This document shows positions 8,496 through 38,469 of a stretch of DNA of 42,178 bases, piece after piece (positions within the stretch are counted from its first letter, which is position 1; each line of letters starts with the position of its first letter). Under the pieces are notes generated by a model that saw only the letters and a list, made by a program, of their open reading frames with translations, was not told the origin of the DNA and made no database searches. The stretch is from Candidatus Aenigmatarchaeota archaeon. Lineage in GTDB: Archaea > Aenigmatarchaeota > Aenigmatarchaeia > QMZP01 > JAUXAV01. Location: contig JAUXAV010000001.1 of NCBI GenBank assembly GCA_030619735.1, positions 1 to 42,178 on the forward strand, written 5' to 3'. Both the position numbers and the translations under genes were made by a program.

Positions 8496-8506
8496 ATAAC
8501 CGAAGA

Positions 8507-9760: not shown

Positions 9761-9819
9761 CCTCTATATATCAGCATATTTTTAAATAATATAAGCCAAT
9801 AACAAGAGTTGGTGGGATA

Positions 9820-11175: not shown

Positions 11176-11179
11176 TTGT

Positions 11180-11830: not shown

Positions 11831-11888
11831 GACAAGAATTCATCATATATAACGCTTTTAAATTCTTTGGCATATATTAACCTAAAAG

Positions 11889-13178: not shown

Positions 13179-13193
13179 AAATTTATCAGAATG

Positions 13194-14666: not shown

Positions 14667-14913
14667 ACCTAATCACTACAAAAGGATTTGACCGTATGCT
14701 TTATATTCTTTAATCCCAAAATGCAGTTGTTGCAGCTTGTCAGGTATTTAAAATACTGTGTTTAATTATATTAAATTAGTTAGAAGGCCCCACAGACCAC
14801 TTCAAGCTGCGATACTAATAAAAACCTTCTATTGCTTAATTTCATAATCAACATAAAATAAATAATACAAAGCCATATATAATATCCAGGCAAAGAAAAA
14901 GGAGGAGAAGTAG

Positions 14914-15750: not shown

Positions 15751-15751
15751 C

Positions 15752-16681: not shown

Positions 16682-16764
16682 AGGTCCTTGGCTGGGAACC
16701 AAGGATTTGGTTTGAGGAAGGCCTTAAAGGGCTGATAGAATATATAAAGAAGCGCGGGAATTAG
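16681..16764 (+). pseudogene. Orphan 3' tail of an SDR epimerase/decarboxylase gene (27 codons + stop), out of frame behind uxs
   Basis: Translation KVLGWEPRIWFEEGLKGLIEYIKKRGN* mirrors the true uxs C-terminus LDWEPKVSFEEGLKKTIEYFREGK. It starts at the last base of the uxs stop codon, in a different frame. Confidence 0.7.
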
Positions 16765-17694: not shown

Positions 17695-17730
17695 ATTTAC
17701 ACCCTATCTTCTTTAAAGCAATTATTATAT

Positions 17731-19335
17731 TTATTGGCTTACTTCATAGATTATGAAGATTCTCTGCTCGTCTCTATATATTTCCTTGGCTTTTTTAAAC
17801 CTGGAATCATTCTCAATTTCATTGTATGGTTCTGAGCGAAATGTGTAATCTGGTGGTATTCTGCCGTTACAGTATGGCCTTTTTACAAACGGTATTTCGA
17901 AGGGGCCAAACTTTGGATGAAAGTATGCAGTGACCCCAGACTCCTCGTAATCGTAATAAATCGATATAACAACATAATCCACCCCGTTATTCTTAAACCA
18001 ATTATAATCGAACAATTTGTAGATTGTATAATTCCCCGATTTCCTTATATTGAAATATTCCAAATAATCAGGATGGCTTATATTAATCAATATATTCATA
18101 AATTTGTCAAATTCCATTTTTTTGCCATTAAACTCTGTGTATCGTGGCACGGAAAGTATGTTCTTCGTTGTGGTTGACTTTAAGTAGTATGGTAAGTATT
18201 CAGTGGCTATGGTGATATCCCCTTCAATAGAGTTTATATATTTCGATAGCTCTTCTGTGCCCCATAAACTTTTCTCTTCCAGGTCTATTAAATAAACAGT
18301 GTTCATGAATGATGCTAAAACAAGGACAGAGAAAATGCCGTAAACTAATCTTTTGTCTAGTTTACTCTGTGCTGCAACGAACCCTTTCGATGCGAATATG
18401 GCAAAAATTGGGATTAAAAGAGAAAGATATCTTAGTCTTAAATGCCCTGACCAGATGAAAAAACCAGTATACATCAATAAGCATATTAAGAAAAACACGC
18501 CTTTTTTTTCATTCCTTACAAACAACATGCCTAAGATTGAAAATAACAGCGTTGGTACAAAAACGAATTTTGTCAACTCGGATATATTCCATGGTGATAT
18601 AAAGAATGTTAGTTGTCTTGTTACAAGAATGTTTGCTCCGGAAAATATACTAAAAAACAAATAAGCAAGAACAAATATGATGGGAACTAAAGCTGCCGAA
18701 ATGATAAATTCTTTTGATATAAAGATTCTGGGCTTCTTTCTGTACAGGACGTAAATCAAGAGGGGAATTAAAAAAATTATTATGTTGAATTTAAGAAGCA
18801 TCCCAAGAGAAAGGGATAATGCTGAAAACAAGAAATACTTTTTATCCCTTTCTACACCTAAGTAGAAATTAAATATAAAGAGTGCCGAAAAAACCGCCAA
18901 AGGTATATCAGTCAATACCGATAGTCCCCACCTCCAAAAAAAGGGGAACGTAAAAATGAAGATGGTTGATAAAAAGGCCTCTTTTTTCCCATAAATTTTC
19001 CTTACGTAAAAATACGTGACCAAAAGTAGGAGATTCATAAAAATTATTGGTATGAGAATTCTGGCACCATTAATCCCAATACCTGATAATATGGATAATG
19101 AAATAATAGAGGGGATAAAAGGTAGTCTGTGAGTGAAATCATCCGGGTATTCTCCGATTAGAATGGATTTCCCGACAAATATATAATTAGTCTCGTCTGG
19201 ACTAAGTGAATTAAGATCCATAAAAATCGGGATAAGTATTGTTGTGAGCAATAAAACAGTAAGAATAAACATTAATTCATTTCTTTTGATATTTTTCATA
19301 ATTTTTGATTGCACTTCTGACACCTCATACTTCAC
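17731..19335 (-). CDS. GT-C fold membrane glycosyltransferase (ArnT/PMT, GT39/83-like) with C-terminal soluble domain
   Basis: 534 aa, many hydrophobic segments. First-loop PDETNY..G motif (D-E of GT-C enzymes). C-terminal tail ...RIFIIYEVSQ is shared with the other GT-C paralogues. Very AT-rich: lines at 18301 and 19021 count 21 and 19 G+C of 60. Confidence 0.7.
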   Translation of the reverse strand: MKYEVSEVQSKIMKNIKRNELMFILTVLLLTTILIPIFMDLNSLSPDETNYIFVGKSILIGEYPDDFTHRLPFIPSIISLSILSGIGINGARILIPIIFMNLLLLVTYFYVRKIYGKKEAFLSTIFIFTFPFFWRWGLSVLTDIPLAVFSALFIFNFYLGVERDKKYFLFSALSLSLGMLLKFNIIIFLIPLLIYVLYRKKPRIFISKEFIISAALVPIIFVLAYLFFSIFSGANILVTRQLTFFISPWNISELTKFVFVPTLLFSILGMLFVRNEKKGVFFLICLLMYTGFFIWSGHLRLRYLSLLIPIFAIFASKGFVAAQSKLDKRLVYGIFSVLVLASFMNTVYLIDLEEKSLWGTEELSKYINSIEGDITIATEYLPYYLKSTTTKNILSVPRYTEFNGKKMEFDKFMNILINISHPDYLEYFNIRKSGNYTIYKLFDYNWFKNNGVDYVVISIYYDYEESGVTAYFHPKFGPFEIPFVKRPYCNGRIPPDYTFRSEPYNEIENDSRFKKAKEIYRDEQRIFIIYEVSQ

Positions 19336-20266: not shown

Positions 20267-21856
20267 TCATTTTTTCTTGTAAATGAATGTCCTAGTATTA
20301 GGAAGGTTGCCCTCAATAGTTTTCACCAGTTCAAAAGCTTTGTGTTTGCTGGCAAACTCCAGCAAGTCATACTCGCTATCTATTTTCGTGTATTCCTCAT
20401 GCACAATGATATAATTCACCTTTGGGTATTCTATGTTGAACCTTGCCCATTCCGGCTCTGAATATTTGCCTTCTATCATCTGTTCCAGTTCGCTCTCCTT
20501 ACGGGGCATGTAGAATAAGTATATCTTTCTTTCCTTGTCAAGGAGGGCAAAACTGAAAGCCTGGCCCCTGTACTGGGAACTTATGATACTGGTCTCTGAT
20601 TCTGTATCTTCTATTACATACAGGGAAGCTTCATCAAACTTTCCCACTGGAAACTCGTTTCCGGTTGCAATTAAGAAATGCGAGCACTGGGCAACAGCAA
20701 GAATCATTATGGCAATCACAACTGGGTGCCAGATTTTTTTAAATAGCTTGATAATTACCCTTGAGGTGGGTATGATTATAAAGGGGATTATGTAAATCAT
20801 GAACCTTGGTTGTGCCCCGCCATATATGGAAAAGGTTATGAAGAAGACCAGGACCATAACTATTGAAGCCTTTTCTACTATATTTAATGCCCTAATTTTT
20901 TTGACTAGGAATACTATGGCCAAGATGAAGAATGGTATCAGGTACCAAGTATGGAGGATGGTTGAGATATAGAACACGAAATTCTGCAGTGATGAAAGCC
21001 CTATATAGCTTCGTTTTGTCCCGTCCATAAGCGGGAAACCTTCAACGGCACTTTTCTCAAACCCTCCGGCATGTTCTGTCCATTTGCCCAGTCCTGAGAG
21101 GCCCTGGGTTTCTAGGACTGCAAGCTCTATAATCCAGGGACTCAGAAAAATGAAAAACAAAATAATCGATACAGCAATCTGCTTGTGCTTTTTCCTTAAG
21201 GATGAAAAAGATAATCCTCTGTGCCAGAGCAGGGTAAGGAAAAGAACGGGTAGTATCAAGACCATGGGAGGCTTTGTAAGAATTGCCAGGGCTGAGCCTA
21301 TTGCAGTGAGGTAGAGATACCTGCTCTTGTTCTTCAGGGAATACAGGGAGAAATAATAAACTGTTATGACCAGGAACATGGTTGATGCAATTTCCAGCAG
21401 AAGGCTGGTTGAGTAATAGAAAATCAGGGGATTGAAGGCTATTAGGAAAACCCCCAGGAATGCCACTCTCCTGTCCTTGTAGCAGAGCTTGGATAATTTG
21501 TATGCGAAAAAGAGTAGAATCATTACCTCTATTATGGAAGGCAGTATAGTTATAAACCTGCTCACACCAAACAGAAGGTAGATCAGCCCTAGGAAGATGA
21601 AATGAAAAGGACTATATGCCAGGAAGGAACCAAAGGATTTGTAATGCATATGGTGGCTTATGGCCAGGTCACTTAGTTCTGAGAAAGAGATGGTAGGATT
21701 TGAAAGCCATGCAGTTCCCAGCTCATTGACAAACAACCCTGCAGCAGCGTGGTTGCCCTCATCACCCGTCATCCTGTTAATATTGATTGTGGTCAGGCTG
21801 AGGACAAGGCTGAATAGCAATATAAAAATTAATATAAACTTATTTTCTTTATTCAT
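20267..21856 (-). CDS. GT-C fold membrane glycosyltransferase (ArnT/PMT-like) with C-terminal soluble domain
   Basis: 529 aa. N-terminal TM then MTGDEGNHAAAG first-loop motif, more than 10 hydrophobic segments, ~130-aa soluble C-terminus. Confidence 0.7.
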   Translation of the reverse strand: MNKENKFILIFILLFSLVLSLTTININRMTGDEGNHAAAGLFVNELGTAWLSNPTISFSELSDLAISHHMHYKSFGSFLAYSPFHFIFLGLIYLLFGVSRFITILPSIIEVMILLFFAYKLSKLCYKDRRVAFLGVFLIAFNPLIFYYSTSLLLEIASTMFLVITVYYFSLYSLKNKSRYLYLTAIGSALAILTKPPMVLILPVLFLTLLWHRGLSFSSLRKKHKQIAVSIILFFIFLSPWIIELAVLETQGLSGLGKWTEHAGGFEKSAVEGFPLMDGTKRSYIGLSSLQNFVFYISTILHTWYLIPFFILAIVFLVKKIRALNIVEKASIVMVLVFFITFSIYGGAQPRFMIYIIPFIIIPTSRVIIKLFKKIWHPVVIAIMILAVAQCSHFLIATGNEFPVGKFDEASLYVIEDTESETSIISSQYRGQAFSFALLDKERKIYLFYMPRKESELEQMIEGKYSEPEWARFNIEYPKVNYIIVHEEYTKIDSEYDLLEFASKHKAFELVKTIEGNLPNTRTFIYKKK

Positions 21857-21893
21857 AATAAATATAAGAAAAGTAGTATATAAATTAGATATT

Positions 21894-23929: not shown

Positions 23930-24778
23930 ATGCTGAGCATAGTAATCCCGACATACAATGAGGAGGAGGGAATTGACCAGGTTCTTGGAGAGATAAAGGG
24001 AGTAATGGCAAAATTAAAGGAGAAGAGCGAGATAATCGTTGTTGATGATGGCTCCCAGGACAGGACTGCTGAGATTGCAAAAAAGCACAAGGTGAAGCTG
24101 ATAAGGAATCCCTACAACAGGGGGTATGGGTTTTCCATAAAAAGGGGAATAAAGGAGTCCAAAGGCGACTGGATTCTCATAACAGATGCAGACGGCACAT
24201 ACCCTGTGAAGGACATACCCAGGCTTCTGGAATATACAGGGGAATATGATATGGTGGTGGGCGCAAGAACAGGAAAGAATGTCAAGATACCCCTTATGAG
24301 GAGGCCGGCAAAGTTCATGCTCGGGAGGGTGGCCAACTACCTGACCGGGGTGAAGATACCTGACCTGAACTCAGGGTTCAGGGTGTTCAGGAAGGATATA
24401 GCCCTGAGGTTTTTCAATCTCTTCCCCTATGGTTTCTCCTTCACCACAACCATAACCATGGCCTGCCTCAGCAATGAGTACCTGGTCAAGTATGTGCCGA
24501 TAGACTACCATAGGAGGAAGGGAAAATCCAGTATGAAGAGAAGGGAGTTCATAAACTTCAATATCTTGATGCTCAGGATGATAATGTATTTCAAGCCCCT
24601 CAAGATATTCATGCCGAGTGCAGCGGTGCTATTCATAATAGGCATTGTCCTTTTGCTGTGGGACCTTATCATAAGGTTTAATGTTACAGAGCTCTCTGTT
24701 ATGATAATACTGGTTTCATTCCTGGTTGGGTTCCTGGGCCTGATTGCAGACCTGGTGGTTAAGAAAACAAGTGAATAA
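23930..24778 (+). CDS. GT2 glycosyltransferase with two C-terminal TM helices (GtrB/ArnC architecture)
   Basis: MLSIVIPTYNEE, VVDDGSQDRT, ITDADGTYP. C-terminal hydrophobic segments AAVLFIIGIVLLLW and VMIILVSFLVGFLGLIADLVV. Confidence 0.85.
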   Translation: MLSIVIPTYNEEEGIDQVLGEIKGVMAKLKEKSEIIVVDDGSQDRTAEIAKKHKVKLIRNPYNRGYGFSIKRGIKESKGDWILITDADGTYPVKDIPRLLEYTGEYDMVVGARTGKNVKIPLMRRPAKFMLGRVANYLTGVKIPDLNSGFRVFRKDIALRFFNLFPYGFSFTTTITMACLSNEYLVKYVPIDYHRRKGKSSMKRREFINFNILMLRMIMYFKPLKIFMPSAAVLFIIGIVLLLWDLIIRFNVTELSVMIILVSFLVGFLGLIADLVVKKTSE

Positions 24779-24783
24779 AAGCC

Positions 24784-26286
24784 CTATTTTTCTATCCTTT
24801 CCTTAAGGGCGCCCCTTACCTTTTCCGCGAATATGTATTCAAATGGGAATGAGAAGAATCGGTGCTTCCATCTTGCGGCTGCAGTTGGCCTGAAGATTCT
24901 CATGAAGAGGCTGTAAATGGATTTTGTCTGCTTCCAGAGTATATATTCTGAATCCGAGCCGTGGAGTAGGAAGTTGGAGTACATGATGGCCTTATAAAAC
25001 CACATATTATCAAGGTAGTTGTATTCCATTTCCTCCCTGAATCTCCCCCAGTCCTCAAGCCTCTGGGGAGATTTCCATCCCATTTGAACCACCCGATTGA
25101 ACAGCTCACTTCCTGGGTATGGAGCAAAGAGGGAGACAGCGTGCGCTATCTTGGGGTTGATTTTGTTTATAGCATCTATCAATCTTACGGTTTTAATGGC
25201 ATCGGCCTTTGTCTCTCCTGGTATCCCCACCATCCAAGAATACTTGGCGCCGATTCCGTATTCCGTGGAAAGCCTTGCAGAATCCAGTATCTGTTCCAGT
25301 GTTATGTCCTTGTGGATGAGGTCAAGTATCCTCTGTGAGCCAGATTCTGCACCAAAGGCAACATGATGGCATTCAGTATCCTTAAGGCTCTGGAAGAGGC
25401 TGTCTGTTTTATGGACATCCACCCGGAATCCGTCCTCTATTGCCCATACAAGGCCAAGGTCCTTGAAGAGTTCCCCTATCTTCACTATCCTTTTCTCAGG
25501 GCCCATGAAGGCATCGTCAATAACTATTCTTTTGACCCCGGCCTTTACCAAAGGCTGAATCTCCCTTTCTATTTTCTTGGGGCCCCAGGCGCGGTAAATC
25601 CTTTTCGTGCAGAGGAGATTCCAGCAGAATGAACACCTGAAGGGGCACCCCTTGCTGGTTATGATATGTATGGTCTTTAGGCCGCCGGAGTCAAAGATGT
25701 ATCTTTTGAGATTAATCAGGTCCAGGGCCATTGAAACCTCCTTGTCCCAGTCCCTTATAATGGGCCTATCTTCTGTATGCACTGGTTTGCCGTTGCGCTT
25801 AAAGGTAAGGCCCTTAACCGAGCTGATATCCCTACTGTCCTTCAGGGCGTCCGCCAGCTCCACAGATGTTATCTCCCCCTCCCCTCTGCAGACTATGTCG
25901 ATGTTGGGGTTTATTACTGTCTGCTCTGGCAGGATATCCGGATGCGGCCCGCCCCAGACTATTTTTGTGTCCGGACTTGCCTGCTTTATGAACCTTGAGA
26001 GCTCAATTGCATCCAGTATGATAGGTCCTGTGAAAATCGTGAATCCCACGAAAAGTATCCTGTTCTCGCGGAGCGCCTTCACCAGGTCCTTTCGGTCATC
26101 CAGCCTGTCGTCAAAAATAAGCACCCTGTATCCGGCCCTGCGCAGGCTTGATGCTAAGAAAAGCGGGCCGTAAGGCAGGTTTACTATCTTGTACGGAGAG
26201 ACAATGTTTGGCTGTATCAGGATTATGTCCACCTTTGATGGACAGCTGTTGCCCTTAGGCAACATTATGTCATATTTTCCTTTCAT
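24784..26286 (-). CDS. B12-binding-domain radical SAM protein (class B type)
   Basis: 500 aa. LFLASSLRRAGYRVLIFD...VWGGPHPD cobalamin-domain-like N-terminus and TSKGCPFRCSFC (CX3CX2C). Last gene of a long minus-strand operon. Confidence 0.8.
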   Translation of the reverse strand: MKGKYDIMLPKGNSCPSKVDIILIQPNIVSPYKIVNLPYGPLFLASSLRRAGYRVLIFDDRLDDRKDLVKALRENRILFVGFTIFTGPIILDAIELSRFIKQASPDTKIVWGGPHPDILPEQTVINPNIDIVCRGEGEITSVELADALKDSRDISSVKGLTFKRNGKPVHTEDRPIIRDWDKEVSMALDLINLKRYIFDSGGLKTIHIITSKGCPFRCSFCWNLLCTKRIYRAWGPKKIEREIQPLVKAGVKRIVIDDAFMGPEKRIVKIGELFKDLGLVWAIEDGFRVDVHKTDSLFQSLKDTECHHVAFGAESGSQRILDLIHKDITLEQILDSARLSTEYGIGAKYSWMVGIPGETKADAIKTVRLIDAINKINPKIAHAVSLFAPYPGSELFNRVVQMGWKSPQRLEDWGRFREEMEYNYLDNMWFYKAIMYSNFLLHGSDSEYILWKQTKSIYSLFMRIFRPTAAARWKHRFFSFPFEYIFAEKVRGALKERIEK

Positions 26287-26322
26287 TAAAAATCTATTCC
26301 ATGGAATGTTTTAAATATTAAT

Positions 26323-27504
26323 CTAAGCCACCCTTCTATAGACCTTCATTATGTCAAGGGAGACCCTTGCCCATGAATAGTCTTTGATTGCCTTCTCCCT
26401 GCAGGCCCTTCCGAGCTTCTTTATCCTTTTTTCATCATTAAGGAGGCCTGCAAGCATTTCTGCAAACTCATGGAAATCCTGTGCACTGGCATAGACACCG
26501 AGGTTTCCGAGTATGTGCCTGTTTACTGGATAGTCAAAAACCACGCTCGGGATTCCCATTGCCATGTAATTATAAACCTTTTCATTGCCCTCACCAGAGG
26601 TGATTATCTTTGGTGAAACCCCCACATGCGCCAGGGAAAGGTATCTGGGGATGTCAAAATAGCTTACCTTGCCTGTGAAGGTGATGTTATCCTGCACCCC
26701 GAGCCTCCTTGCCATCCTTGAGTAGTGCTCGATATTCGGGAAGCCTATTATAAGGAAGTGTGTTTCAGGTGCCTCCTTCAGCACTTCGGGTATGGAGCCT
26801 ATAAGACCGTCGATTCCCTGATAGGGATGGAGCGTGCCTATGTATGTGACAACCCTCCTTCCCTGGGGGATTGAAACCCTTTTCCTGATATTGCCTGGCT
26901 TCACATCCGGGGAGAAGATATCCGTGTCAACACCGTCACCTATAACCGTGACCCTTTCCTGGTCTATCCCGAAATCTTCCGTCAGGACCTTTGCGTTCTG
27001 GTTGGAGCTTGTTATTATCTCGTCTGCACGGCGGTTCAGCATCCCCTCGATGCGATGCCAGAATCTGTAAGAAGTGCTGCCCTTTCTTAGGAAGTGCTTT
27101 GCCAGCATCTCCCCTGTGAGCGAGCCTTCGGCATCAAATACAATGGGCCTCCTTCTGAAGAGCCGGAGCAGACTCCCGACAGCAACCCCTTCATGCAGAA
27201 AGGCGTGTATTATATCATAGTCCCTCTCTAAGAACCTCTTTAGTGCAATAGAGGATAAGAGCACATCCAGATAAATCTTATGGAAATTGGCACCCACGGC
27301 TGTGCTTCTATACCATGGGATGCTGGGTATCCTTTTAATCTCAATGCCCTTTATATTCCTGCCCAGATGGTATGCAAAAACCGTGACCCTGTTGCCGAGC
27401 TTCTGGAGTGACCTTACCTCTTCCAATACGCGGATGGGGGTTCCTCTGTCCTCAAAGAAGGGGACAGGAGATATGTTTGCAATCCTGTACATAGTTATAA
27501 ACAC
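26323..27504 (-). CDS. Glycosyltransferase, GT4-like (GT-B fold)
   Basis: 393 aa. Two-Rossmann GT-B layout. Divergent C-terminal motif SGEGNEKVYNYMAMGIPSVV in the glycos_transf_1 position. Confidence 0.65.
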   Translation of the reverse strand: MFITMYRIANISPVPFFEDRGTPIRVLEEVRSLQKLGNRVTVFAYHLGRNIKGIEIKRIPSIPWYRSTAVGANFHKIYLDVLLSSIALKRFLERDYDIIHAFLHEGVAVGSLLRLFRRRPIVFDAEGSLTGEMLAKHFLRKGSTSYRFWHRIEGMLNRRADEIITSSNQNAKVLTEDFGIDQERVTVIGDGVDTDIFSPDVKPGNIRKRVSIPQGRRVVTYIGTLHPYQGIDGLIGSIPEVLKEAPETHFLIIGFPNIEHYSRMARRLGVQDNITFTGKVSYFDIPRYLSLAHVGVSPKIITSGEGNEKVYNYMAMGIPSVVFDYPVNRHILGNLGVYASAQDFHEFAEMLAGLLNDEKRIKKLGRACREKAIKDYSWARVSLDIMKVYRRVA

Positions 27505-27507
27505 ACA

Positions 27508-28629
27508 TTAAAGATTAAAAAAGGATTTTACACCAGAAATCACCCTGTCAATATCCTCCTGCTTCATGTCCGGGTAAAGCGGGAGTGTTACCAGCCTTTT
27601 CCATATCCTGTCCGCAACAGGCACATCTGCAGGAACATTGCTGTATATCTTGTGCATGTGAAGAGGGAGATAGTGGACGCTTGTTGATATCCCCAGTTTC
27701 TGCATATGCTCCATAAATCTGTCCCTATTTTCTATTTTGGCAACGTAGTTGTGATGCGAGCTTTCGGCATATTCCTTTACCACAGGGGTCTCTATGCCGT
27801 TTATATCAGCAAATGCCTCGTTATATATCTTTGTAATCTCTTTTCTGCGCCTGTTGGTTTCTTTGAGCCTCTCCAGCTGGGCGATTCCAAGGGCCGCGAT
27901 TATGTCGTTCATATGGCTCTTGAATCCCAATTCCTTTACCTCATAGCGCCAGGAATAGGAGGCCTTGCCTGAACGCTGGTGCGTGCTCTTGTCAATGCCG
28001 AACCATCTGAGAAGCTTTGCCCTTTCAGCAACCTCGGGTATGTTCGTGGTAAGCATGCCCCCGTCGCCAGTGGTCAGGTTCTTAACTGCATGGAAGCTGA
28101 AGCAGCCTGCATCGCCAAGGGAGCCGGCGGGTTTTCCCTTGTAAAGGGAGCCGCAGGCATGAGCAGCATCTTCTATAACCCTTATCCCCCTGTCCCGGGC
28201 TGTCTCAAGTATCTCATCCATCTCTACTGGATGCCCCCCGTAGTGCACCACTATTATTGCCTTTGTTTTTTCAGTTATCTTCCTCTTCACGTCCTCAACA
28301 TCTATGTTGAGGGTGTCCTCCCTTATATCAGCAAAAACCGGTTTTGCATTGCAGTAATTGGCCACCAGGGCAGTGGAAATGAATGTGATTGCAGGGACAA
28401 TGACCTCCCCTGAGTTTATATTGAATGCCGCAAGCGCTAGGTGCATTGCGGCTGTTCCTGAGTTGAGGCCCACTGCGTATTTTGTCCGGCAGAAATCGCT
28501 GAACCTGCTCTCAAATTCCCTTGTCTTGGGGCCGAAGGTTATCCAGCCTGAGCGGAGCACATCTGTTACGTACTCTATCTCCTTTTCTGTCATGGAGGGC
28601 TTGAAAACAGGTATTATCTTTTTATCCAT
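27508..28629 (-). CDS. DegT/DnrJ/EryC1/StrS-family PLP-dependent sugar aminotransferase
   Basis: LNSGTAAMHLAL, IEDAAHA and SFHAVKNLTTGDGG (Schiff-base Lys). Confidence 0.85.
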   Translation of the reverse strand: MDKKIIPVFKPSMTEKEIEYVTDVLRSGWITFGPKTREFESRFSDFCRTKYAVGLNSGTAAMHLALAAFNINSGEVIVPAITFISTALVANYCNAKPVFADIREDTLNIDVEDVKRKITEKTKAIIVVHYGGHPVEMDEILETARDRGIRVIEDAAHACGSLYKGKPAGSLGDAGCFSFHAVKNLTTGDGGMLTTNIPEVAERAKLLRWFGIDKSTHQRSGKASYSWRYEVKELGFKSHMNDIIAALGIAQLERLKETNRRRKEITKIYNEAFADINGIETPVVKEYAESSHHNYVAKIENRDRFMEHMQKLGISTSVHYLPLHMHKIYSNVPADVPVADRIWKRLVTLPLYPDMKQEDIDRVISGVKSFFNL

Positions 28630-28725
28630 ATCTGCATCTCCTATTAACTAAGTGCATAGTTAAACTATGCAGAGATGTCTCTTGCACCGTTAACCAATAA
28701 TATTGGTTGACTGGAGACAAGATAT
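28630..28725 (-). repeat. Leader repeat, copy 2: fills the whole cupin-to-aminotransferase intercistronic spacer
   Basis: TGCAGAGATGTCTCTTG at 28668-28684. A near-perfect 11-bp palindromic hairpin at 28689-28699 / 28701-28711. GGAGACAAGATAT at 28713-28725. AATAGGAGATGCAGAT lies directly before the ATG at 28629. Confidence 0.8.
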
Positions 28726-29121
28726 TCACCCTTTTTTCACGCTCCATTTGTATGCGTCAGGGTTTTCAGGATTGTACGGCAGGGTGGTGTAGATGAAGAG
28801 CACGGCATCCCTGTCCCCGATGTTTTCAATTGCATGGCCAATACTGGGGTCCACCCGGACTGTTATAGGCTTCTCCCCGCTCATTCTCATCCTTTCCTTT
28901 CCCAGGTAAAACATGACCTCCCCGGAGAAGATAGTAAAGAATTCTGTCTGCCTTTTATGGTAGTGAAGGCCCTTTGTTTTGCCTGGCTTGATAACGATAA
29001 GGTAATTCTGGCCAAAATCCTTTACTCCCTTCATAATTTCTGAATCAGAACGCAGGGTTTCCATTACTATGCCATTGTCATCAGTTACAACCTTCACCTT
29101 CTTTTTCATCATCTCAATCAT
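28726..29121 (-). CDS. RmlC-like cupin (sugar-nucleotide isomerase/epimerase-like)
   Basis: 131 aa. KGLHYHKRQTEFFTIFSGEV..., then HAIEN...LFIYTTLPYNPENPD. Small cupin barrel of the WxcM/FdtA/RmlC type. Specific activity not assignable. Confidence 0.55.
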   Translation of the reverse strand: MIEMMKKKVKVVTDDNGIVMETLRSDSEIMKGVKDFGQNYLIVIKPGKTKGLHYHKRQTEFFTIFSGEVMFYLGKERMRMSGEKPITVRVDPSIGHAIENIGDRDAVLFIYTTLPYNPENPDAYKWSVKKG

Positions 29122-30134
29122 CCCTCTTCAACAAACCATTCCTTTGCCCTCTTAAGCCCTTCGTCAAAGCTTATCTTCGGTTCCCAGCCCAGGGTCTCCC
29201 TTATTTTGGTAGTGTCCGGGCATCTCCTGTTCGGATCGTCCTTTGGAAGGGGCTTGTGCTCAATCTCAACGTCCCCGAAGAGCCCGACTATCTTTTCAGC
29301 CACATCCTTCATGGCCACCTCCTCACTCCCGCCTATATTGAAAAACTGCCTGGATGCCTCTTTCTTCAGTGAAACGTCCAGTACTCCCCTGAGCGCATCC
29401 GAAAGATAGAGGAAGGCCCTTGTTTGCTTTCCGTTGCCGTAGAGGGTTATCTTTTTCTCCTTCTTGGCGTTGACCAGCCAGTTTGCAATCACCTTTCCGT
29501 GGGGGTAGCCGAAGCTCTGCCTCGGACCGAATATGTTGAAGAACCTCAGTATGCGGAAGTCGACCCCGTGCTGGCGGTCGAATGCATGGATTATGGCCTC
29601 TGCAGCACGCTTGCCCTCATCATAGGTGGAGCGCGGGCCTGTGCAGGAAACATTGCCCCTGTAGGTCTCCGGGGTGGGCACCACCGTAGGGTCACCGTAT
29701 ATCTCTGAGCTGCTCGGGAAAAAGAAGGTTGAGTTCCATTCATGGGCTTTTTTCAGGAGCGCGTGGGTGCCAAGTATATTGGTCAGGAATATATCAACAC
29801 CATATTTGAGGAAGGCACCTGGGGCATTGACGCTGGCCAGATGGTAGATGATGTCAAATCCGGAAAGTCCTTCTGGTATCTTGCCGCTCCGGAGGTCCCA
29901 TTTTATGAGCTTGAAATTGCTGTTGCCTGCAAGGTGCTCTATGTTCCTTGGGGGGCCGCTGGAGAAGTTGTCCAGGCACACCACCTCGTTTCCTGTCTTG
30001 ATAAAGAAGTCGCACAGGGAGCTGCCTATGAATCCGGCGCCGCCTGTGATAAGGATTTTCTTGCTGCTTATCTCTGGGGAGTTCTTTATTACATTTTCTA
30101 TGTCTTCCCGGAGTATCCTGTTCATGGAAATCAC
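29118..30134 (-). CDS. UXS/ArnA-C-terminal-like NAD-dependent sugar-nucleotide decarboxylase/dehydratase (second paralogue)
   Basis: ILITGGAGFIGSSL and PSSSEIYGDPTVVPTPETYRGNVSCTGPRSTYDEGKRAAEAI. Same signature block as uxs but diverged. Confidence 0.7.
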   Translation of the reverse strand: MISMNRILREDIENVIKNSPEISSKKILITGGAGFIGSSLCDFFIKTGNEVVCLDNFSSGPPRNIEHLAGNSNFKLIKWDLRSGKIPEGLSGFDIIYHLASVNAPGAFLKYGVDIFLTNILGTHALLKKAHEWNSTFFFPSSSEIYGDPTVVPTPETYRGNVSCTGPRSTYDEGKRAAEAIIHAFDRQHGVDFRILRFFNIFGPRQSFGYPHGKVIANWLVNAKKEKKITLYGNGKQTRAFLYLSDALRGVLDVSLKKEASRQFFNIGGSEEVAMKDVAEKIVGLFGDVEIEHKPLPKDDPNRRCPDTTKIRETLGWEPKISFDEGLKRAKEWFVEEG

Positions 30135-30156
30135 TTAAGATATTTATTATAACTAT

Positions 30157-30786
30157 TTAAATCTTAATTTCACCAGTTTCTGACTGGTTGTTGAGATTAG
30201 TGACCCTACGCCTGCGGGTCATTCTGCGGTAGCATCTGTATGGAATATATGCTAATAGCTTTATAAGGCAAAGGGACAGGCGGCCCCTAAGATTGAAGGC
30301 TATCATCATCAGATAGTTGTCACCGCCATCAGAGCATACACAGAAGCCATGCTTTTTGTAAAGATGGATGGCTGCCTGGTTTTTTTTCCACACGGCCGCA
30401 CAGATATAGGGGTATTTTTCCCTCCCTATTCTTGTTATTTTTTTCAGCAACCTGCTGCCAATGCCCTTGTTGCGGAACCCGGGAAGGACAGCAATAAACA
30501 GTGATAATACGCCACTAGCTTTCTTGATTCCGGCAAGCCCAAGGATGGTGCTGCCTTTTTTTATGTCTGCATCTCTCCTTTTGAACTGTAATGCAGAGAT
30601 GTCTCTTGAACTATTAACCAATTTACTCTGTTCATTGAAAACAAGAAACACGATTTCCTTGTTTTTTGATACATCATGCCTTAAGGCGCTCTGTATTCTT
30701 TTGTCCTCCCCCTTCAGTCCCCTGAAGAAATGCTCCATTGCCGGCGTCATACAAACACTTATATTTATTGCAATATTTAAATTCAT
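30157..30786 (-). CDS. GNAT-family N-acetyltransferase carrying an internal repeat-derived segment and an odd basic tail
   Basis: FIAVLPGFRNKGIGSRLLKK...NQAAIHLYKKHGF is the acetyl-CoA-binding core. Residues ~58-78 (NSSRDISALQFKRRDADIKK) are encoded by leader-repeat copy 3. A ~45-aa Arg-rich tail follows the normal GNAT end. Confidence 0.65.
   Translation of the reverse strand: MNLNIAINISVCMTPAMEHFFRGLKGEDKRIQSALRHDVSKNKEIVFLVFNEQSKLVNSSRDISALQFKRRDADIKKGSTILGLAGIKKASGVLSLFIAVLPGFRNKGIGSRLLKKITRIGREKYPYICAAVWKKNQAAIHLYKKHGFCVCSDGGDNYLMMIAFNLRGRLSLCLIKLLAYIPYRCYRRMTRRRRVTNLNNQSETGEIKI
30565..30650 (-). repeat. Leader repeat, copy 3 (shortened, hairpin lost), embedded in-frame in the GNAT ORF
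   Basis: TGCAGAGATGTCTCTTG at 30592-30608 is identical to copies 1 and 2. GTCTGCATCTCTCCT at 30565-30579 corresponds to ATCTGCATCTCCT of the other copies. ATA occupies the position of their ATG. Confidence 0.7.
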
Positions 30787-31502
30787 TCTTTTACATTCCT
30801 AGCTATTATCAGAACATGGATGGGCTTGAACTGGTGGATTATTGAGTCAAGCATGAAGAAGGGCTTGAGGAGCTGGAACGCTATTCTGTATAATAGGAAT
30901 TTCCTGGAGGATTTAAGCTTCCTTAGATTGGAGTCCGACATTTTTCTTTTGAAGAGTTTGTAGTATGGCCTGAGTGTTGAGCCGAACTCTATTGTCCTTG
31001 TTGCAGTGAATCCTGCCTGGGCAAGCTTCAACATTAGCCGAAAGGTTGTGTATCGCCTCCTGTGCCCCACAGCCTTATCCACTTCTGACCACATCCCCAT
31101 ATCAAGGGGAACTGACACCACCAAGGTTCCGCCAGGCTTGAGGACCCTGTTCGCCTCTTGTAGTGCCTTTTTATCATTGTCCAGATGCTCCAAGGTGTCA
31201 ATCAGTAGTGTGTTATCAAAGGAGTCGTTCTCAAAGGGGAGGCTCTCCGCCGTGCCGTGGTACCCCCTGTTGCCTGTCTCCCTCCTGTAAACCTCAAGTA
31301 TCCTTTCATCTATGTCCAAGCCCGTTACCTCCCCGCTTACCATCCTAGACTTCTCGCCTATCCAACAGCCTATGTCAAGGGTTGAGCCTTCCAGCTTCCC
31401 CAATACCTTGCTGAATAGCCTTGCCTTTATGTAGGCTTCTGGGCCTCTCTGGCCTGTCAGCAGTTCGTACCTGTCTGACATCCCTTTGTGGGCTTCAATC
31501 AT
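30783..31502 (-). CDS. Class I SAM-dependent methyltransferase
   Basis: 239 aa. TLDIGCWIGEKS (motif I), FDNTLLIDTLEHL and LKPGGTLVVSVP. ATGA overlaps on both sides indicate translational coupling. Confidence 0.8.
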   Translation of the reverse strand: MIEAHKGMSDRYELLTGQRGPEAYIKARLFSKVLGKLEGSTLDIGCWIGEKSRMVSGEVTGLDIDERILEVYRRETGNRGYHGTAESLPFENDSFDNTLLIDTLEHLDNDKKALQEANRVLKPGGTLVVSVPLDMGMWSEVDKAVGHRRRYTTFRLMLKLAQAGFTATRTIEFGSTLRPYYKLFKRKMSDSNLRKLKSSRKFLLYRIAFQLLKPFFMLDSIIHQFKPIHVLIIARNVKE

Positions 31503-31825
31503 GCTTCTGCCTCCAGCTTGTATATGATTAAAACCACCTGCCCGTTATTGTAAATCTGCTTCACCCTTTCGTATCTCGCATCGCTTTCCAGTTCCTCGTA
31601 TGAGACCATGGAGGGCACTAGGGGCGGCCTGTGTGTGAAGTCATAGGTACATATCCCTGGCTCCCCGTACCTCCCTTCCAGGATGCTCTTTCCCATGAAG
31701 AGGTAGATTGTCTCGTCAGGGTTTATGGAATTCAGGTCCATTAGAGTGAATATCATGATTGTGGTGAAGAGGCAGAGTAGGAAAATGAACAGGAATTCAT
31801 ACCTGGTGGTTTCTGCGCTTTTCAT
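31499..31825 (-). pseudogene. In-frame collapsed GT-C paralogue: N-terminal ~75 aa fused to C-terminal ~33 aa (108-aa single-TM mini-ORF)
   Basis: LMDLNSINPDETIYLFMGKSILEGRY...YDFTHRPPLVPSMVS aligns with FMDLNSLSPDETNYIFVGKSILIGEYPDDFTHRLPFIPSIIS of the 534-aa protein. YEELESDARYERVKQIYNNGQVVLIIYKLEAEA aligns with its tail YNEIENDSRFKKAKEIYRDEQRIFIIYEVSQ. The ORF is intact and overlaps the next gene, so it may still be translated. Confidence 0.7.
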
Positions 31826-31889: not shown

Positions 31890-32153
31890 ATGAAAAAGGA
31901 ACGTATTTACAGTAAATACATCTCAATACACTATTCGAAAGCTAGCCTGTCCCAGGTGCTGAGGGTCTCCGGATTCAGGGATATCAGGGTTTACCCCATG
32001 GACATATATGTGGGAAAGCCCCTAATTGACTGCATTGCAAGGATGGTTTCAAGGGTATTTGATTTGTTTTTCAGGATACTCTTCCTCCTGTACGGGAGGA
32101 CGTCAACAAGGATATTTGCAAAGAGCATATTTGCTATAGGGAGGAAGGGGTGA
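31890..32153 (+). pseudogene. Possible C-terminal stub of a class I methyltransferase
   Basis: 87 aa. HYSKASLSQVLRVSGFRDIRVY and ending SIFAIGRKG resemble the post-motif-III tail of the two methyltransferases here (YRFTKDSLEHLF...GFIVYAKKR). No SAM-binding motifs present. Confidence 0.35.
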
Positions 32154-35654: not shown

Positions 35655-35918
35655 ATTCTTGGTAAAGTAATAAACATTGGTAGCGGAAGATATACAAATG
35701 TGATTACAATTGCGAGATTGATTCTGGACTGTATGAATAAGCCAGAATCTTTGCCCCAGCACGTTAAAGATAATAGACCAGGGCATGTTAGGCAACACTT
35801 AGCCTCTAATGATAAAGCTGAAAGGCTTTTGGACTGGAAGGCAAGGACAAGGTTTGAAGATGCCTTGAGGGAAACCGTTAACTGGTATCGAGAGAATGAA
35901 TGGTGGTGGAAGGCTTAG
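35655..35918 (+). pseudogene. rmlB: C-terminal ~87-codon remnant of rmlB (dTDP-glucose 4,6-dehydratase)
   Basis: GKVINIGSGRYTNVITIARLILDCM...VKDNRPGHVRQHLASNDKAERLLDWKARTRFEDALRETVNWYRENEWWWKA matches the RmlB C-terminus (YNIG..., DRPGHD.RYA.D..K....LGW.P...FE.GL..TV.WY..N..WW). The upstream part of track ORF 35484-35918 overlaps the radical-SAM gene and is not homologous. Confidence 0.75.
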
Positions 35919-36874
35919 TCTTCCTGTTCTTTTCTTGCAGGCATCCTGAACCAGATGAGCATGCCTATTATGCCCAAGAGTATGTGTCCAACAAAGAGTA
36001 TGACAAGGGAGAATGAGATGGCTGATTCTGCTGTCAGGTGAATGAATGCAAAGAAGAGCACCAGTGCAGCATCCCTTGTGCCTATGCCTGAAAGTGAGAC
36101 GGGCAGGGCCTCCAGGAGCATGGTAATGGGGGTTATCATCAGCAGGAACTGGAAGGGAAGTGTGATGTTCAGGGCCAGAGCCATGAGGTAGTACTGGAAT
36201 ATTGTAAGGAGCATGGCTATTATTCCCAGAACAGTTGAAACAATTATAATGGTTTTTCTGTTCCTCATAATCCCCAAACCCTTGTAAAAGTCATTGAATA
36301 CTGTACCTAGCTTCGGCTTGTATCTGTCCGGAATCATGGCCCTGAAGAAGGGCCTCAGAATCCGGATGACAAACCCCTTCCTGGTAAGGAGGAATACAAA
36401 CAACAGGAATAGGATGAAAATAACCACTACTGACAGGAGCAAATCAAAATATCCTGCGTAAAACGATGCGAAGAATACTATCCCTATCAGGGCCAGGGAG
36501 AACAGGACAATAACGTCTATGATTCTGTCCACCATAACGGTTGTCAGGGACTTGCCCAGGGAGGTCTTCTCCCTGAGGTAATACGCCCTGTAAAAATCCC
36601 CAAGCCTGCCAGGGGTTATAAGGCTCACGGAATAGCCGACCAGCCAGGCCCCAATGGATTTTATAAAGGGATAATCGATATTATATACCTTCATGAGCAT
36701 CTTCCATTTGAATGCCTTTACTGCAATTATAGGGACTATAAAAATGATGGAAATGGAGAGGTAGAACATGTCTGTGTTTTTCAGTATGCTGAGTATTTCT
36801 AGCAGGTTCATGTTCCAGATTATATACAGGAACAGCACAATACCTATTACTGGCAGAAAAATCTGAAGCTTCAT
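35915..36874 (-). CDS. Flippase-like membrane protein (UPF0104 / lysyl-PG-synthase TM-region family)
   Basis: 319 aa, ~8 TM segments. AVKAFKWKMLM, LITPGRLGDFYRAYYL and LPVSLSGIGTRDAAL are typical of this family. Confidence 0.65.
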   Translation of the reverse strand: MKLQIFLPVIGIVLFLYIIWNMNLLEILSILKNTDMFYLSISIIFIVPIIAVKAFKWKMLMKVYNIDYPFIKSIGAWLVGYSVSLITPGRLGDFYRAYYLREKTSLGKSLTTVMVDRIIDVIVLFSLALIGIVFFASFYAGYFDLLLSVVVIFILFLLFVFLLTRKGFVIRILRPFFRAMIPDRYKPKLGTVFNDFYKGLGIMRNRKTIIIVSTVLGIIAMLLTIFQYYLMALALNITLPFQFLLMITPITMLLEALPVSLSGIGTRDAALVLFFAFIHLTAESAISFSLVILFVGHILLGIIGMLIWFRMPARKEQED

Positions 36875-36975: not shown

Positions 36976-38469
36976 ATGGATAAGAAAAGGCTGATAATAG
37001 CCATTGTTCTGATGCTTCTGGCGCTCGCGTTCGTCTTCAGGACCATTAATCCCCATCTCAATCCTGCCACGCATGTGAATGTGCATGGGGATGAAGCAAG
37101 GGTGCTGACCATAGCCAGGAATGTGGCAGAGAGGGGGCAGTATGCATACAGTGAGGGCCTGTCCGAGTATGAGCTCTCGCTTCCCAATGCCTTTTGGACA
37201 GGGCCCCTGACTATTTATACCCATGCAGTATTTTTCTTTTTATTCGGCTCCACATATGCCGTGGCACGGCTGACCGTGGCGCTCTTCGGCTTTATATGCA
37301 TCTACTTGATGTATCTGATAACAAAAAGGATATACGGGAAGAAGGCCGCCATCATATGCGCGGTGCTGGCTGCCCTGAACCCTTTGTTTGCATTCTACAG
37401 CCGCGTGGCGCTGCATGACATACTGTGCTACATGTTCTTTTTGATTTCGGTTTATCTGGCGCTGGATATTGAGAATAGGACCAGGCTCAGGATGGCCCTG
37501 ATAGGGGTGTGCGCTGCCCTGGCTAGCATCTCAAGATACAATGGAATTATAATTCTGCTGGTTATGGTTATTTATTTCGCATATACCAGGAGGCGGAAGT
37601 TCCTGATGGATTTGCCATTCCTTTTAATTCCGTGTTTCTTGGTCTTCCTGGGATTCTATTTCTGGCTTGTCTACAATGGATTTTTTGAACTCTTTACAAG
37701 AACGTTTTTTGGTGATATGTTTGAAACAGGCATCATGGCAAAGACCGGGCTTATGGCATATTACGGCATCATAGCCGTGCTGCAGGTCCTTGTCAAGTAT
37801 GCCCCCTTCCTGCTGGTTGGCACTGTTGCCGGTCTACTCGTTATATACAAGCGAGGGTTCGTGAGCAGGCAGGAGAAGCTTATCCTGATATGGATGATGG
37901 TGGGGTTTGCTTGGTGGCTCCAGTCATATGCCTCAGGAAAATACATGCTAGCCTTCACCTTCCCCATGTTCATCTTTGTGTCCGGAGCCCTGATGAAGGT
38001 GATAAAGAAGCCAGTATTCAGGCTTGACCATAGGCATGTTATGGTCTTTCTTGGTGTATTGCTGGTTGCATATATTGCAGTGAATCTGGAGGCCACCTAT
38101 GACATAAGGGATGATTCAGTATACAACGCGGCTGCTATCATAAAGGCCTCAGAAGAGAGGATATTATTTGCAGAGCCGCCCCTGGCATTTGTTTCAGGAA
38201 AATCAAAGCTCTCGCACTATTGGAATGACTCCTACAGGCATTGGGTAAGTTCAGAGCTTCATCTTGAAATGTTCTATGACCCACCAAATAACCAATCCAT
38301 TTATGATTATCTGGAAAGGACAAAACCAAGATACATAATGCTGAGTTCCAAGTTCCCTGTCAAAAGTGCAACGCCAAGAAAGGAGTTCAACCATTATATA
38401 GATTTGTATGGAAAGGTCAAAGAAGAGATTGGTTCATACATTCTTTATGAACTAAGTTGGCCTGAATAA
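36976..38469 (+). CDS. GT-C fold membrane glycosyltransferase (ArnT/PMT-like) with C-terminal soluble domain
   Basis: 497 aa. N-terminal anchor then HGDEARVLTIARN first-loop motif, more than 10 hydrophobic segments, soluble tail ending SYILYELSWPE. Confidence 0.7.
   Translation: MDKKRLIIAIVLMLLALAFVFRTINPHLNPATHVNVHGDEARVLTIARNVAERGQYAYSEGLSEYELSLPNAFWTGPLTIYTHAVFFFLFGSTYAVARLTVALFGFICIYLMYLITKRIYGKKAAIICAVLAALNPLFAFYSRVALHDILCYMFFLISVYLALDIENRTRLRMALIGVCAALASISRYNGIIILLVMVIYFAYTRRRKFLMDLPFLLIPCFLVFLGFYFWLVYNGFFELFTRTFFGDMFETGIMAKTGLMAYYGIIAVLQVLVKYAPFLLVGTVAGLLVIYKRGFVSRQEKLILIWMMVGFAWWLQSYASGKYMLAFTFPMFIFVSGALMKVIKKPVFRLDHRHVMVFLGVLLVAYIAVNLEATYDIRDDSVYNAAAIIKASEERILFAEPPLAFVSGKSKLSHYWNDSYRHWVSSELHLEMFYDPPNNQSIYDYLERTKPRYIMLSSKFPVKSATPRKEFNHYIDLYGKVKEEIGSYILYELSWPE

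Follow-up and report, generated by a model that had tools for sequence, protein, structure and literature searches.

The locus considered here, a row of genes in a member of the Candidatus Aenigmatarchaeota, raises the question of what a cobalamin-type radical S-adenosylmethionine (SAM) enzyme may contribute to the making of an archaeal surface glycan. The row occupies positions 24784-31825 of a 42,178-nucleotide (nt) stretch of contig JAUXAV010000001.1 (assembly GCA_030619735.1), which was analysed as a whole and is called the window below, and it ends in a gene for a B12-binding radical SAM protein. The preliminary description of this DNA knew of no archaeal glycosylation pathway containing such an enzyme, and within the archaeal N-glycosylation papers searched this holds, the literature searched giving no radical SAM protein in archaeal Agl pathways and no B12-binding radical SAM protein in polyprenyl-phosphate glycosylation. 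More broadly, archaeal protein and lipid glycosylation are not known to include a radical SAM step, and the papers searched show none for lipid-carrier-dependent GT2/GT-C glycosylation. The enzyme class is a known one, while the family and its pathway context are uncharacterised. The answer favoured here, to which we would give a probability of about 45%, is that the protein performs radical tailoring, probably C-methylation, of a sugar linked to a lipid carrier before a GT-C glycosyltransferase transfers that sugar. The argument starts from the following genes, with protein lengths in amino acids (aa).

24784..26286, minus strand: B12-binding (class B) radical SAM protein, 500 aa, of what is called family X here (PF02310 and PF04055)
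23930..24778, plus strand: AglJ/ArnC-like GT2 of the polyprenyl-phosphate sugar synthase type, with two C-terminal transmembrane helices (NCBIfam, transmembrane prediction)
26323..27504, minus strand: GT4 retaining glycosyltransferase, 393 aa (GT4 Pfam domains)
13194..14666, minus strand: paralogous B12-binding radical SAM protein, 490 aa, family X (Pfam; 32% identity to the 500-aa protein, E 1e-74)

The radical SAM proteins and their family

That the last gene of the row encodes a cobalamin-type (class-B) radical SAM protein, as first proposed from the letters of the sequence, is borne out by motif, domain and fold. The 500-aa protein matches PF02310 over residues 39-144 (E 1e-17) and PF04055 (E 6e-16), and the cysteines of its CxxxCxxC motif (C214/C218/C221) are invariant in 34 members of its clade and in all 47 sequences of the tree described below. 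Its AlphaFold2 model, with a pLDDT of 91.6, consists of an N-terminal Rossmann-type B12-binding domain, a partial TIM barrel and a C-terminal domain. Foldseek matched it to MgmA/QCMT, TsrM, AprD4, TokK, CysS and OxsB at TM scores of 0.61-0.67, with a probability of 1.00 for MgmA, TsrM, TokK, CysS and OxsB, and in sequence the solved class-B methylases are remotely similar (PDB matches with E 3e-16 to 6e-11). Because these structural neighbours catalyse differing chemistries, spanning radical methylation, polar methylation, diol dehydration and ring contraction, the fold assigns the class and not the reaction. The protein may use cobalamin, for which no conserved ligand motif exists. Aromatic residues (W/F/Y) make up 23.5% of its C-terminal 81 residues against 8.4% of the rest, and the C-terminal domain is also basic.

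Known families of B12-binding radical SAM proteins match the 500-aa protein only at a distance. The best NCBIfam model, HpnJ (TIGR03471), gives 159.1 bits against a cut-off of 577.6, followed by BchE (TIGR02026; 141.9 against 481), MJ0865/QCMT (99.8 against 360), HpnR (91.8 against 650), TIGR04072 (71 against 360) and TIGR04190 (58 against 500). The 490-aa paralogue shows the opposite order, BchE being the top model and HpnJ reaching 138 bits. In pairwise phmmer comparisons, HpnJ (84 bits), BchE (100 bits) and HpnR (66 bits) compare with 236 bits between the two paralogues of the window. A bootstrapped neighbour-joining tree (47 sequences, 200 replicates) was built with annotated HpnJ, BchE and HpnR from plasmid records as its only references. 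Family X, comprising both radical SAM proteins of the window, the close clade and the mid-distance matches, excludes every reference, the two of HpnJ, the two of BchE and HpnR, in 200/200 replicates, and the 500-aa protein groups with the close clade in 183 of the 200. Tes/GDGT-MAS (MJ0619-type) gave no PDB sequence match at E <= 1e-3 and was absent among the 50 Foldseek matches listed. On the placement inside Grs/Tes lipid-modifying clades that the preliminary description had considered, the comparison, as far as run, leaves Tes unmatched and both proteins outside the HpnJ, BchE and HpnR clades; judged by sequence, family X is distinct from the HpnJ, BchE, HpnR and Tes families, with tree references limited to the first three. 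Membership of the 500-aa protein in HpnJ itself, prompted by the top model match and by a parallel in GT2 and PF03706 neighbours, was ruled out by the tree and the pairwise scores.

The family is very large. In a search with a profile of the close clade, more than 150 representatives of clusters at 50% identity reach full-length scores of more than 330 bits, thousands of others are more distant relatives, and the proteins at E <= 1e-30 number 16,458; named members come from Asgard archaea, Altiarchaeota, candidate phyla radiation (CPR) bacteria, Chlamydiota and Binataceae. A scan of genome contigs with the single protein gave one match, a distant one in Lentisphaera.

Genes kept next to family X

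The GT2 gene at 23930-24778 is convergent with the radical SAM gene, 5 bp separating the ends of the two open reading frames (ORFs). Its product scores 106 bits with the AglJ model of NCBIfam (cut-off 325), 105 with Dol-P hexose transferase, 81 with PpgS and 78 with ArnC (cut-off 529). Orthologues of this GT2 adjoin family X radical SAM genes elsewhere, with 47% identity in loci L002, L021 and L055 and 48% in L095. The last of these also holds the nearest relative of the 500-aa protein (57% identity), in the order GT2 orthologue, GT4 orthologue, carbamoyltransferase, radical SAM, and its GT4 orthologue is 49% identical over the full length. The trio of GT2, GT4 and radical SAM is kept in the nearest relative and the pair of GT2 and radical SAM more widely, and the GT2, which lies outside the coordinates of the preliminary description, is the best-conserved genomic partner of the radical SAM gene.

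This partnership extends through the close clade, defined as seven orthologue neighbourhoods with radical SAM identities of 41-55%. A GT2 of about 285-320 aa lies within a few genes of the radical SAM gene in 7/7 of these loci, accompanied by large polytopic or PMT_2 membrane proteins in six, by an ATP-grasp protein, a class I methyltransferase and a second B12-binding radical SAM protein in five each, and by DegT in four. The large unannotated membrane neighbours were considered as homologues of the GT-Cs of the window and showed no phmmer similarity to them, so that they can be called only polytopic membrane proteins. A census of metagenome loci, with 138 ORFs at most two genes from family X members and, as a control, 71 ORFs on the same contigs at least 6.5 kb away, counted 29 radical SAM proteins near family X (23 with a B12 domain), 15 GT2s, 12 GT4-type proteins, 11 Methyltransf_11 and 5 PMT_2 proteins. 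The distal control held at most one each of GT2, radical SAM, B12 domain and Methyltransf_11, and four GT4s. By one-sided Fisher tests, GT2 (p <= 0.01) and paralogue radical SAM genes (p <= 0.0004) are specifically proximal to family X, while GT4 (p = 0.31) is merely common across the islands. GT4 as a family-wide partner, an association to which the preliminary description had pointed, is therefore not borne out (12/138 against 4/71), and the link is kept only in the nearest relative. Family X itself commonly occurs in tandem runs of two to five paralogues.

In bacterial modules of the close clade (L003, L086, L087) the second B12-binding radical SAM protein forms a tight clade of its own (200/200 replicates) outside family X. 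The conserved bacterial module combines two distinct types of B12-binding radical SAM protein with an ATP-grasp protein; the window has neither the second type nor the ATP-grasp protein.

PF03706 membrane proteins in four of the close-clade loci (L003, L004, L085, L086) and a polysaccharide deacetylase in two recall the annotated hpn locus, where the same triad of a GT2 (hpnI), a PF03706 protein and a B12-binding radical SAM protein (hpnJ) stands together with a deacetylase. They speak for a different reaction, in which the enzyme, like HpnJ or Cds, would contract or rearrange the ring of a lipid-linked (amino)sugar into a carbocyclic (cyclitol or calditol-like) residue with no methyl transfer. 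HpnJ is also the top model for the 500-aa protein, and lipid-bound sugars are the proposed substrates of HpnJ and Cds, both being thought to act once the sugar is already on its lipid (PMC13459092, PMC9092360). Such a rearrangement nevertheless seems quite unlikely: the HpnJ score lies far under its cut-off, with BchE similar and even on top for the paralogue, phmmer ranks HpnJ no better than BchE, and HpnJ falls outside family X in every replicate. In addition, the GT2 of the window is AglJ/ArnC-like and not HpnI-like, the HpnL model is unmatched, the window has no deacetylase, and a single ring contraction does not sit well with arrays of as many as five paralogues.

A further possibility is that the glycan location is secondary and that the enzyme methylates or cyclises the isoprenoid chain of an ether lipid or of the dolichol carrier, in the manner of Grs and Gmm. 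GrsA, GrsB and Gmm are likewise predicted to be B12-domain radical SAM proteins, from their placement in a sequence similarity network and AlphaFold models (PMC13459092). The aromatic-rich C-terminus of the 500-aa protein would suit a lipid chain, CDP-alcohol phosphatidyltransferases recur in the islands, and in Altiarchaeota a family X member is found among three radical SAM proteins with PF23545 (Zn_ribbon_HMPTM), other radical SAM proteins and a methyltransferase. Modification of the chain is decidedly improbable all the same. Family X is abundant in bacteria (CPR, Chlamydiota, Binataceae), groups that are not known to make tetraether lipids, its neighbours are enriched for GT2 and not for lipid-synthesis genes, Tes is unmatched by sequence or fold in the searches given above, and the lipid-type models TIGR04072 and TIGR04190 score low.

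The Altiarchaeota locus (L099; contig JBDRLL010000003.1, 1-15100) carries seven radical SAM genes in about 15 kb, two of family X, three with Zn_ribbon_HMPTM, which we take to be a Tes/MJ0619-type domain, and two of other types, flanked by a methyltransferase and a PMT/PMT_2 GT-C; the array looks like a lipid- or glycolipid-modification cluster.

A proposed mechanism

In three-component glycosylation, which follows a logic shared by the Arn, Gtr and AglD/AglS systems, the sugar is first put on polyprenyl phosphate by a GT2, then flipped across the membrane, and lastly transferred outside the cell by a GT-C. The window holds three AglJ/ArnC-like GT2s, three PMT_2 GT-Cs, a TIGR00374 flippase-like protein, a Wzx-type flippase and two DegT genes, together with several short-chain dehydrogenases/reductases (SDRs) and nucleotidyltransferases, an asparagine synthase-type amidotransferase and a CDP-alcohol phosphatidyltransferase, and by analogy this inventory reads as the parts list of lipid-carrier-dependent surface glycosylation. 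In the mechanism favoured here, the GT2 at 23930-24778 would attach a sugar, on the cytoplasmic side of the membrane, to dolichyl or polyprenyl phosphate, and GT4 may extend the lipid-linked sugar. Using a 5'-deoxyadenosyl radical, the radical SAM protein would then alter this sugar at an unactivated carbon, most probably through C-methylation mediated by cobalamin. After flipping to the other side of the membrane, the product would be transferred to a surface acceptor by one of the PMT_2 GT-Cs. We infer that the substrate is lipid-linked rather than nucleotide-linked, and likewise the type of reaction and the final acceptor. A lipid-carrier-linked substrate is favoured because the GT2 is specifically proximal to family X and because the C-terminal domain is aromatic and basic, with precedent in HpnJ and Cds, for which action on an already lipid-bound sugar is proposed (PMC13459092, PMC9092360), and in the GT2, PF03706 protein and B12-binding radical SAM protein of the annotated hpn locus; C-methylation is favoured because most characterised class-B radical SAM enzymes are methylases and because of the tandem paralogue arrays, an arrangement typical of multi-site methylation.

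Several observations weigh against this mechanism. In the window the GT2 gene is on the strand opposite to the radical SAM gene, which makes their association one of proximity and not of an operon. The methyltransferases found near family X are not strict orthologues of one another, a Promethearchaeota member has no glycan neighbours, and synteny is heterogeneous beyond the close clade. To these can be added the Altiarchaeota member, one of seven radical SAM genes in an array where three carry PF23545. As for the reaction, Foldseek matches five different chemistries about equally, and no sequence feature separates methylases from B12-binding radical SAM proteins that do not methylate. The use of cobalamin is itself in some doubt, as the structural neighbour AprD4 presumably has a B12-like domain without cobalamin, and CPR and DPANN-like lineages often cannot make B12, yet family X is common there.

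A wider claim, which is possible though on the whole doubtful, is that family X as such represents a widespread and so far unrecognised class of B12-type radical SAM enzymes which, at the membrane, C-methylate polyprenyl- or dolichyl-phosphate sugars or rearrange their rings ahead of flipping and GT-C transfer. If true, three-component glycosylation would gain a radical tailoring step across archaea, CPR bacteria and numerous further lineages, and branched or carbocyclic sugars, so far unseen in archaeal glycans, would be expected. Assigning the reaction of family X would annotate thousands of genes, could reveal such sugars on cell surfaces, and would test how general the HpnJ/Cds-type radical chemistry on lipid-bound sugars is. 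Members stand out in CPR and DPANN-like organisms with small genomes and also in Asgard archaea, whose cell surfaces mediate contact between cells, and the trio of GT2, GT4 and radical SAM is a compact, directly testable three-gene system. B12-binding radical SAM proteins without an assigned function are numerous, however, and new chemistry is not demonstrated by these sequence data.

Comparison with known systems

By analogy, the system may work as class-B radical SAM tailoring grafted onto a lipid-carrier route of the Arn/Agl type. The class-B C-methyltransferases GenK, GenD1, MoeK5, TokK, CysS and MgmA/QCMT share with it the three-domain architecture and the motifs, the TM scores given above for the structural neighbours, the tailoring of a product within a glycoside pathway and the tandem paralogue arrays. 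GenK, GenD1 and MoeK5 have been described as class-B enzymes that C-methylate sugars or glycolipids (PMC12931638). The setting differs: in the window it is lipid-carrier-based primary surface glycosylation, and not an antibiotic cluster.

The second half of the analogy comes from the Arn pathway (Ugd, ArnA, ArnB, ArnC, ArnD, ArnE/F, ArnT) and GtrA/GtrB/GtrV. The window likewise has a UDP-sugar dehydrogenase, a putative decarboxylase of the UXS/ArnA type, an ArnB-like aminotransferase, a GNAT as possible N-acyltransferase, ArnC-like GT2s with C-terminal transmembrane helices, a flippase-like protein and PMT_2/ArnT-like GT-Cs. All equivalog cut-offs are nevertheless missed widely, the formyltransferase domain, the ArnD deformylase and Polysacc_deac_1 are absent from the window, and its GNAT, cupin, GT4 and radical SAM proteins are not part of the Arn pathway. 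Archaeal Agl N-glycosylation (AglJ/AglD with the GT-C AglS) offers AglJ as the best model for the GT2, at 106 bits, and one of the GT-Cs is weakly Agl23-like; here too the scores are sub-equivalog, the window has no AglB, and the Agl literature searched holds no radical SAM step.

Two further systems bring radical SAM chemistry close to lipids. The HpnJ/HpnI/HpnK/HpnL system of the bacteriohopanetetrol cyclitol ether resembles the window in that a GT2, a PF03706 membrane protein and a B12-binding radical SAM protein are encoded close together, and in the proposed action on a sugar already attached to its lipid; it differs in that the window has no hopanoid genes (hpnI, hpnK) and a GT2 of the AglJ/ArnC type. 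The archaeal lipid enzymes Tes/GDGT-MAS, GrsA/B, Gmm and Cds are likewise archaeal radical SAM proteins acting on lipids or lipid-bound sugars, whereas family X is widespread in bacteria and tied to GT2 neighbours, and Tes is unmatched.

The gene row and its transcription

The row consists of eight co-directional minus-strand ORFs, the radical SAM and GT4 genes listed above and six more, which are given here with the two gaps of interest and with a dehydrogenase gene from elsewhere in the window.

31499..31825, minus strand: internally deleted GT-C remnant, 108 aa, one predicted transmembrane helix; first ORF of the row (BLASTP)
30783..31502, minus strand: class I SAM-dependent methyltransferase, 239 aa (Methyltransf_11, E 7e-20)
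30157..30786, minus strand: GNAT acetyltransferase, 209 aa (Acetyltransf_1, E 4e-12)
29118..30134, minus strand: SDR resembling UXS-type UDP-glucuronate decarboxylases, 338 aa (PDB 2b69, human UXS1, 237 bits, E 2.5e-69)
28726..29121, minus strand: cupin, 131 aa, like the C-terminal 3-epimerase cupin of CapF/WbjC (PF14667, E 2e-16)
28630..28725, minus strand: structured intergenic leader, 96 nt, with two perfect palindromes and a TATA-like element (score 7/8)
27508..28629, minus strand: DegT/PseC/ArnB-like sugar 4-aminotransferase, 373 aa (PF01041, E 2e-121)
26287..26322, minus strand: AT-rich gap of 36 nt, TTAATATTTAAAA, candidate internal archaeal promoter for the radical SAM gene
11889..13178, plus strand: UDP-glucose/GDP-mannose dehydrogenase (three UDPG_MGDP_dh domains)

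The ORF boundaries are exactly those of the preliminary description, and Pfam and NCBIfam agree with its labels (Methyltransf_11, GNAT, Epimerase/GDP_Man_Dehyd SDR, cupin, DegT, GT4, and B12-binding with Radical_SAM). The genes overlap by 4 nt at four junctions, the remaining spacings being 22, 96, 3 and 36 nt. The first ORF and the SDR, DegT and radical SAM genes are each preceded by a TATA-like or long AT-rich element at promoter distance, against a background rate of 7.7% in the scan; the last three of these genes are those that follow the gaps of 22, 96 and 36 nt. No such element came up in that scan before the genes that begin in the four overlaps, or at the 3-nt junction between DegT and GT4. 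The 36-nt gap contributes an AT run of 14 nt at -45 to -12. With such elements in the larger gaps, the row may comprise up to four transcription units, and a single operon in which the radical SAM gene is co-transcribed with GT4, as had been supposed, is not established. Scans for sigma-70 promoters and intrinsic terminators stayed at chance level, these models being unsuited to an archaeon.

The candidate promoter could also mean that the radical SAM gene belongs to an unrelated pathway under its own control, or that it is decaying along with other genes of the island. Decay is visible elsewhere. The 108-aa ORF has zero Pfam or NCBIfam matches, and by BLASTP its residues 28-75 align to residues 38-79 (56% identity) and its residues 76-105 to residues 504-533 (40% identity) of the 534-aa GT-C at 17731-19335. 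Since only the two ends of that protein are matched, the ORF is read as an internally deleted remnant, and of the former label, a mini GT-C, the relatedness to GT-Cs stands and the idea of a small functional enzyme does not. A lone B12-binding domain (152 aa, 9212-9670, minus strand), 36% identical to residues 18-111 of the 490-aa paralogue, is the truncated gene of a further radical SAM protein resembling family X; it adjoins a class I methyltransferase-like ORF at 8507-9139 (minus strand). The two remnants together point to gene decay and rearrangement in the island. For the radical SAM gene itself, an unrelated or inactive role is extremely improbable, its ORF being unbroken, every invariant residue of the family being present, the fold being predicted with confidence, and its synteny with GT2 and GT4 orthologues being kept in the nearest relative and across the clade.

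The leader before the DegT gene had been labelled a leader repeat; it contains no direct repeat but two perfect palindromes (inverted repeats at 28653-28671 and 28692-28708), each unique within the window. As RNA it has a minimum free energy of -32.6 kcal/mol (z = -3.8 against shuffles), with the GGAG/ATG ribosome-binding region of DegT paired, and an Rfam search of the whole window, leader included, returned zero RNA families. The leader could be a pair of operators or a translational control element.

A possible sugar-nucleotide branch

By sequence comparison the SDR is clearly of the UXS type, the next-best family reaching 141 bits against 237 for UXS1, although its NCBIfam matches are all below cut-off (70 against 777 bits for the ArnA model, 94 against 294 for the 4-keto-pentose/UDP-xylose synthase model). 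The cupin matches residues 255-356 of Cap5F (E 5e-9), and the cupin of CapF epimerises a 4-keto sugar at C3. DegT scores 349 bits with PseC, 312 with ArnB (cut-off 631) and 284 with the WecE-type model, each under its equivalog cut-off. The GNAT protein has no specific relative in PDB or NCBIfam, and the methyltransferase has generic PDB relatives only and 32% identity to the methyltransferase of the close-clade locus L004; a role on sugars is presumed for both from gene context alone. The earlier logic of a keto-sugar converted into an acetamido-sugar accordingly remains plausible in its SDR, CapF-like cupin and PseC/ArnB/WecE-like DegT steps, GNAT and methyltransferase being only generic.

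Because a UXS-type SDR, a CapF-like cupin, a 4-aminotransferase and a UDP-sugar dehydrogenase are all present, a 4-amino-pentose route can be proposed. The dehydrogenase at 11889-13178 is a possible source of UDP-glucuronate, its tie to the row being inferred. The SDR would decarboxylate UDP-glucuronate to a 4-keto-pentose, the cupin would epimerise this intermediate, and DegT would aminate C4 to give a 4-amino-4-deoxypentose, of which GNAT would make the N-acyl derivative; a final methylation by the class I methyltransferase is possible.

Such a branch invites the reading that the radical SAM protein acts earlier, on the soluble UDP-amino-sugar, by C-methylation, epimerisation or dehydration before glycosyl transfer. 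GenK, GenD1 and AprD4 act on small soluble substrates, and AprD4, whose substrate is a soluble aminoglycoside, is among the structural neighbours. The radical SAM gene shares its row with SDR, cupin, DegT and GNAT, DegT recurs in four of the seven close-clade loci, and a relative on a Solidesulfovibrio plasmid lies within a long sugar-nucleotide operon. A soluble substrate remains unlikely in view of the best-conserved partner, a membrane-anchored GT2 of the polyprenyl-phosphate type. Epimerase-family neighbours number only 5/138 in the census, the sugar-nucleotide genes vary between loci while GT2 and radical SAM persist, and the aromatic, basic C-terminal domain fits an interfacial substrate.

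The plasmid operon just mentioned (L089; Solidesulfovibrio magneticus pDMC1, 7176-19314) encodes two GT2s, the B12-binding radical SAM protein, a NUDIX protein, a kinase, the alpha and beta subunits of a thiamine pyrophosphate-dependent E1, GDP-fucose synthase, DegT, an SDR and a nucleotidyltransferase, with a phospholipid carrier-dependent GT-C further on. It places a B12-binding radical SAM protein in a lipid-carrier glycosylation locus of a cultured organism and might be open to experiment.

The rest of the glycan island

The remaining membrane components that the favoured mechanism, action on a lipid-linked sugar, would draw upon are as follows.

35915..36874, minus strand: PF03706/TIGR00374 'flippase-like' polytopic membrane protein (Pfam E 5e-41; TIGR00374 113 bits, cut-off 43)
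17731..19335, minus strand: PMT_2 GT-C (ArnT/PMT-like), 534 aa, about 11 transmembrane segments (PF13231, E 1e-16)
20267..21856, minus strand: PMT_2 GT-C (PF13231 and PF02366), adjoining an AglJ/ArnC-like GT2
36976..38469, plus strand: PMT_2 GT-C, Agl23-like at 57 bits (PF13231)

All three GT-Cs carry the PMT_2 domain only, and the GT2s of the window reach 78, 74 and 90 bits with the ArnC model against its cut-off of 529, the 74 bits belonging to the GT2 at 38541-39278 that follows the last GT-C. An HpnL-specific identity for the PF03706 protein was considered and set aside, the generic TIGR00374 model alone being matched. The GT2 beside the GT-C at 20267-21856 is listed as a 306-aa ORF (21660-22580, plus strand) overlapping the end of that gene, with GT2 similarity only from residue ~78 (AglJ 118 bits); its true start is probably an ATG near 21891, giving a gene of about 21891-22580 and, with its neighbour, a third pairing of GT2 with GT-C in the window.

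A CDP-alcohol phosphatidyltransferase gene (19519-20238, plus strand) between two of the GT-Cs is archaetidylinositol phosphate synthase-like at 81 bits, below the cut-off, and this family is unusually frequent, at 4/71, among the control ORFs far from radical SAM genes (distal ORFs, loci L013-L084). The closest PDB entries to GT4 are MshA and PimB', both weak matches, which use inositol-based acceptors; together with the phosphatidyltransferase they hint weakly at a glycan linked to an inositol phospholipid.

A third radical SAM gene, of the SPASM type (34505-35617, plus strand), has weak viperin-like and BlsE-like matches (E about 1e-6) and is co-directional with a second DegT aminotransferase and a nucleoside triphosphate-transferase/hexapeptide protein (32154-33257, 33311-34396). 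By analogy with DesI/DesII and BtrN, which provide a logic for radical chemistry on such sugars, it could act on a nucleotide-sugar or amino-sugar. An 87-aa ORF at 31890-32153 was considered as a methyltransferase remnant and dropped, having no significant similarity. The window most likely stems from an archaeon not in culture: for several island genes the best NCBIfam models are archaeal (AglJ, Agl23, archaetidylinositol phosphate synthase), and the named relatives of a malate dehydrogenase at the window edge are all archaeal, with 50-54% identity (Aenigmarchaeota, Nitrososphaerales, Diapherotrites, Bathyarchaeia).

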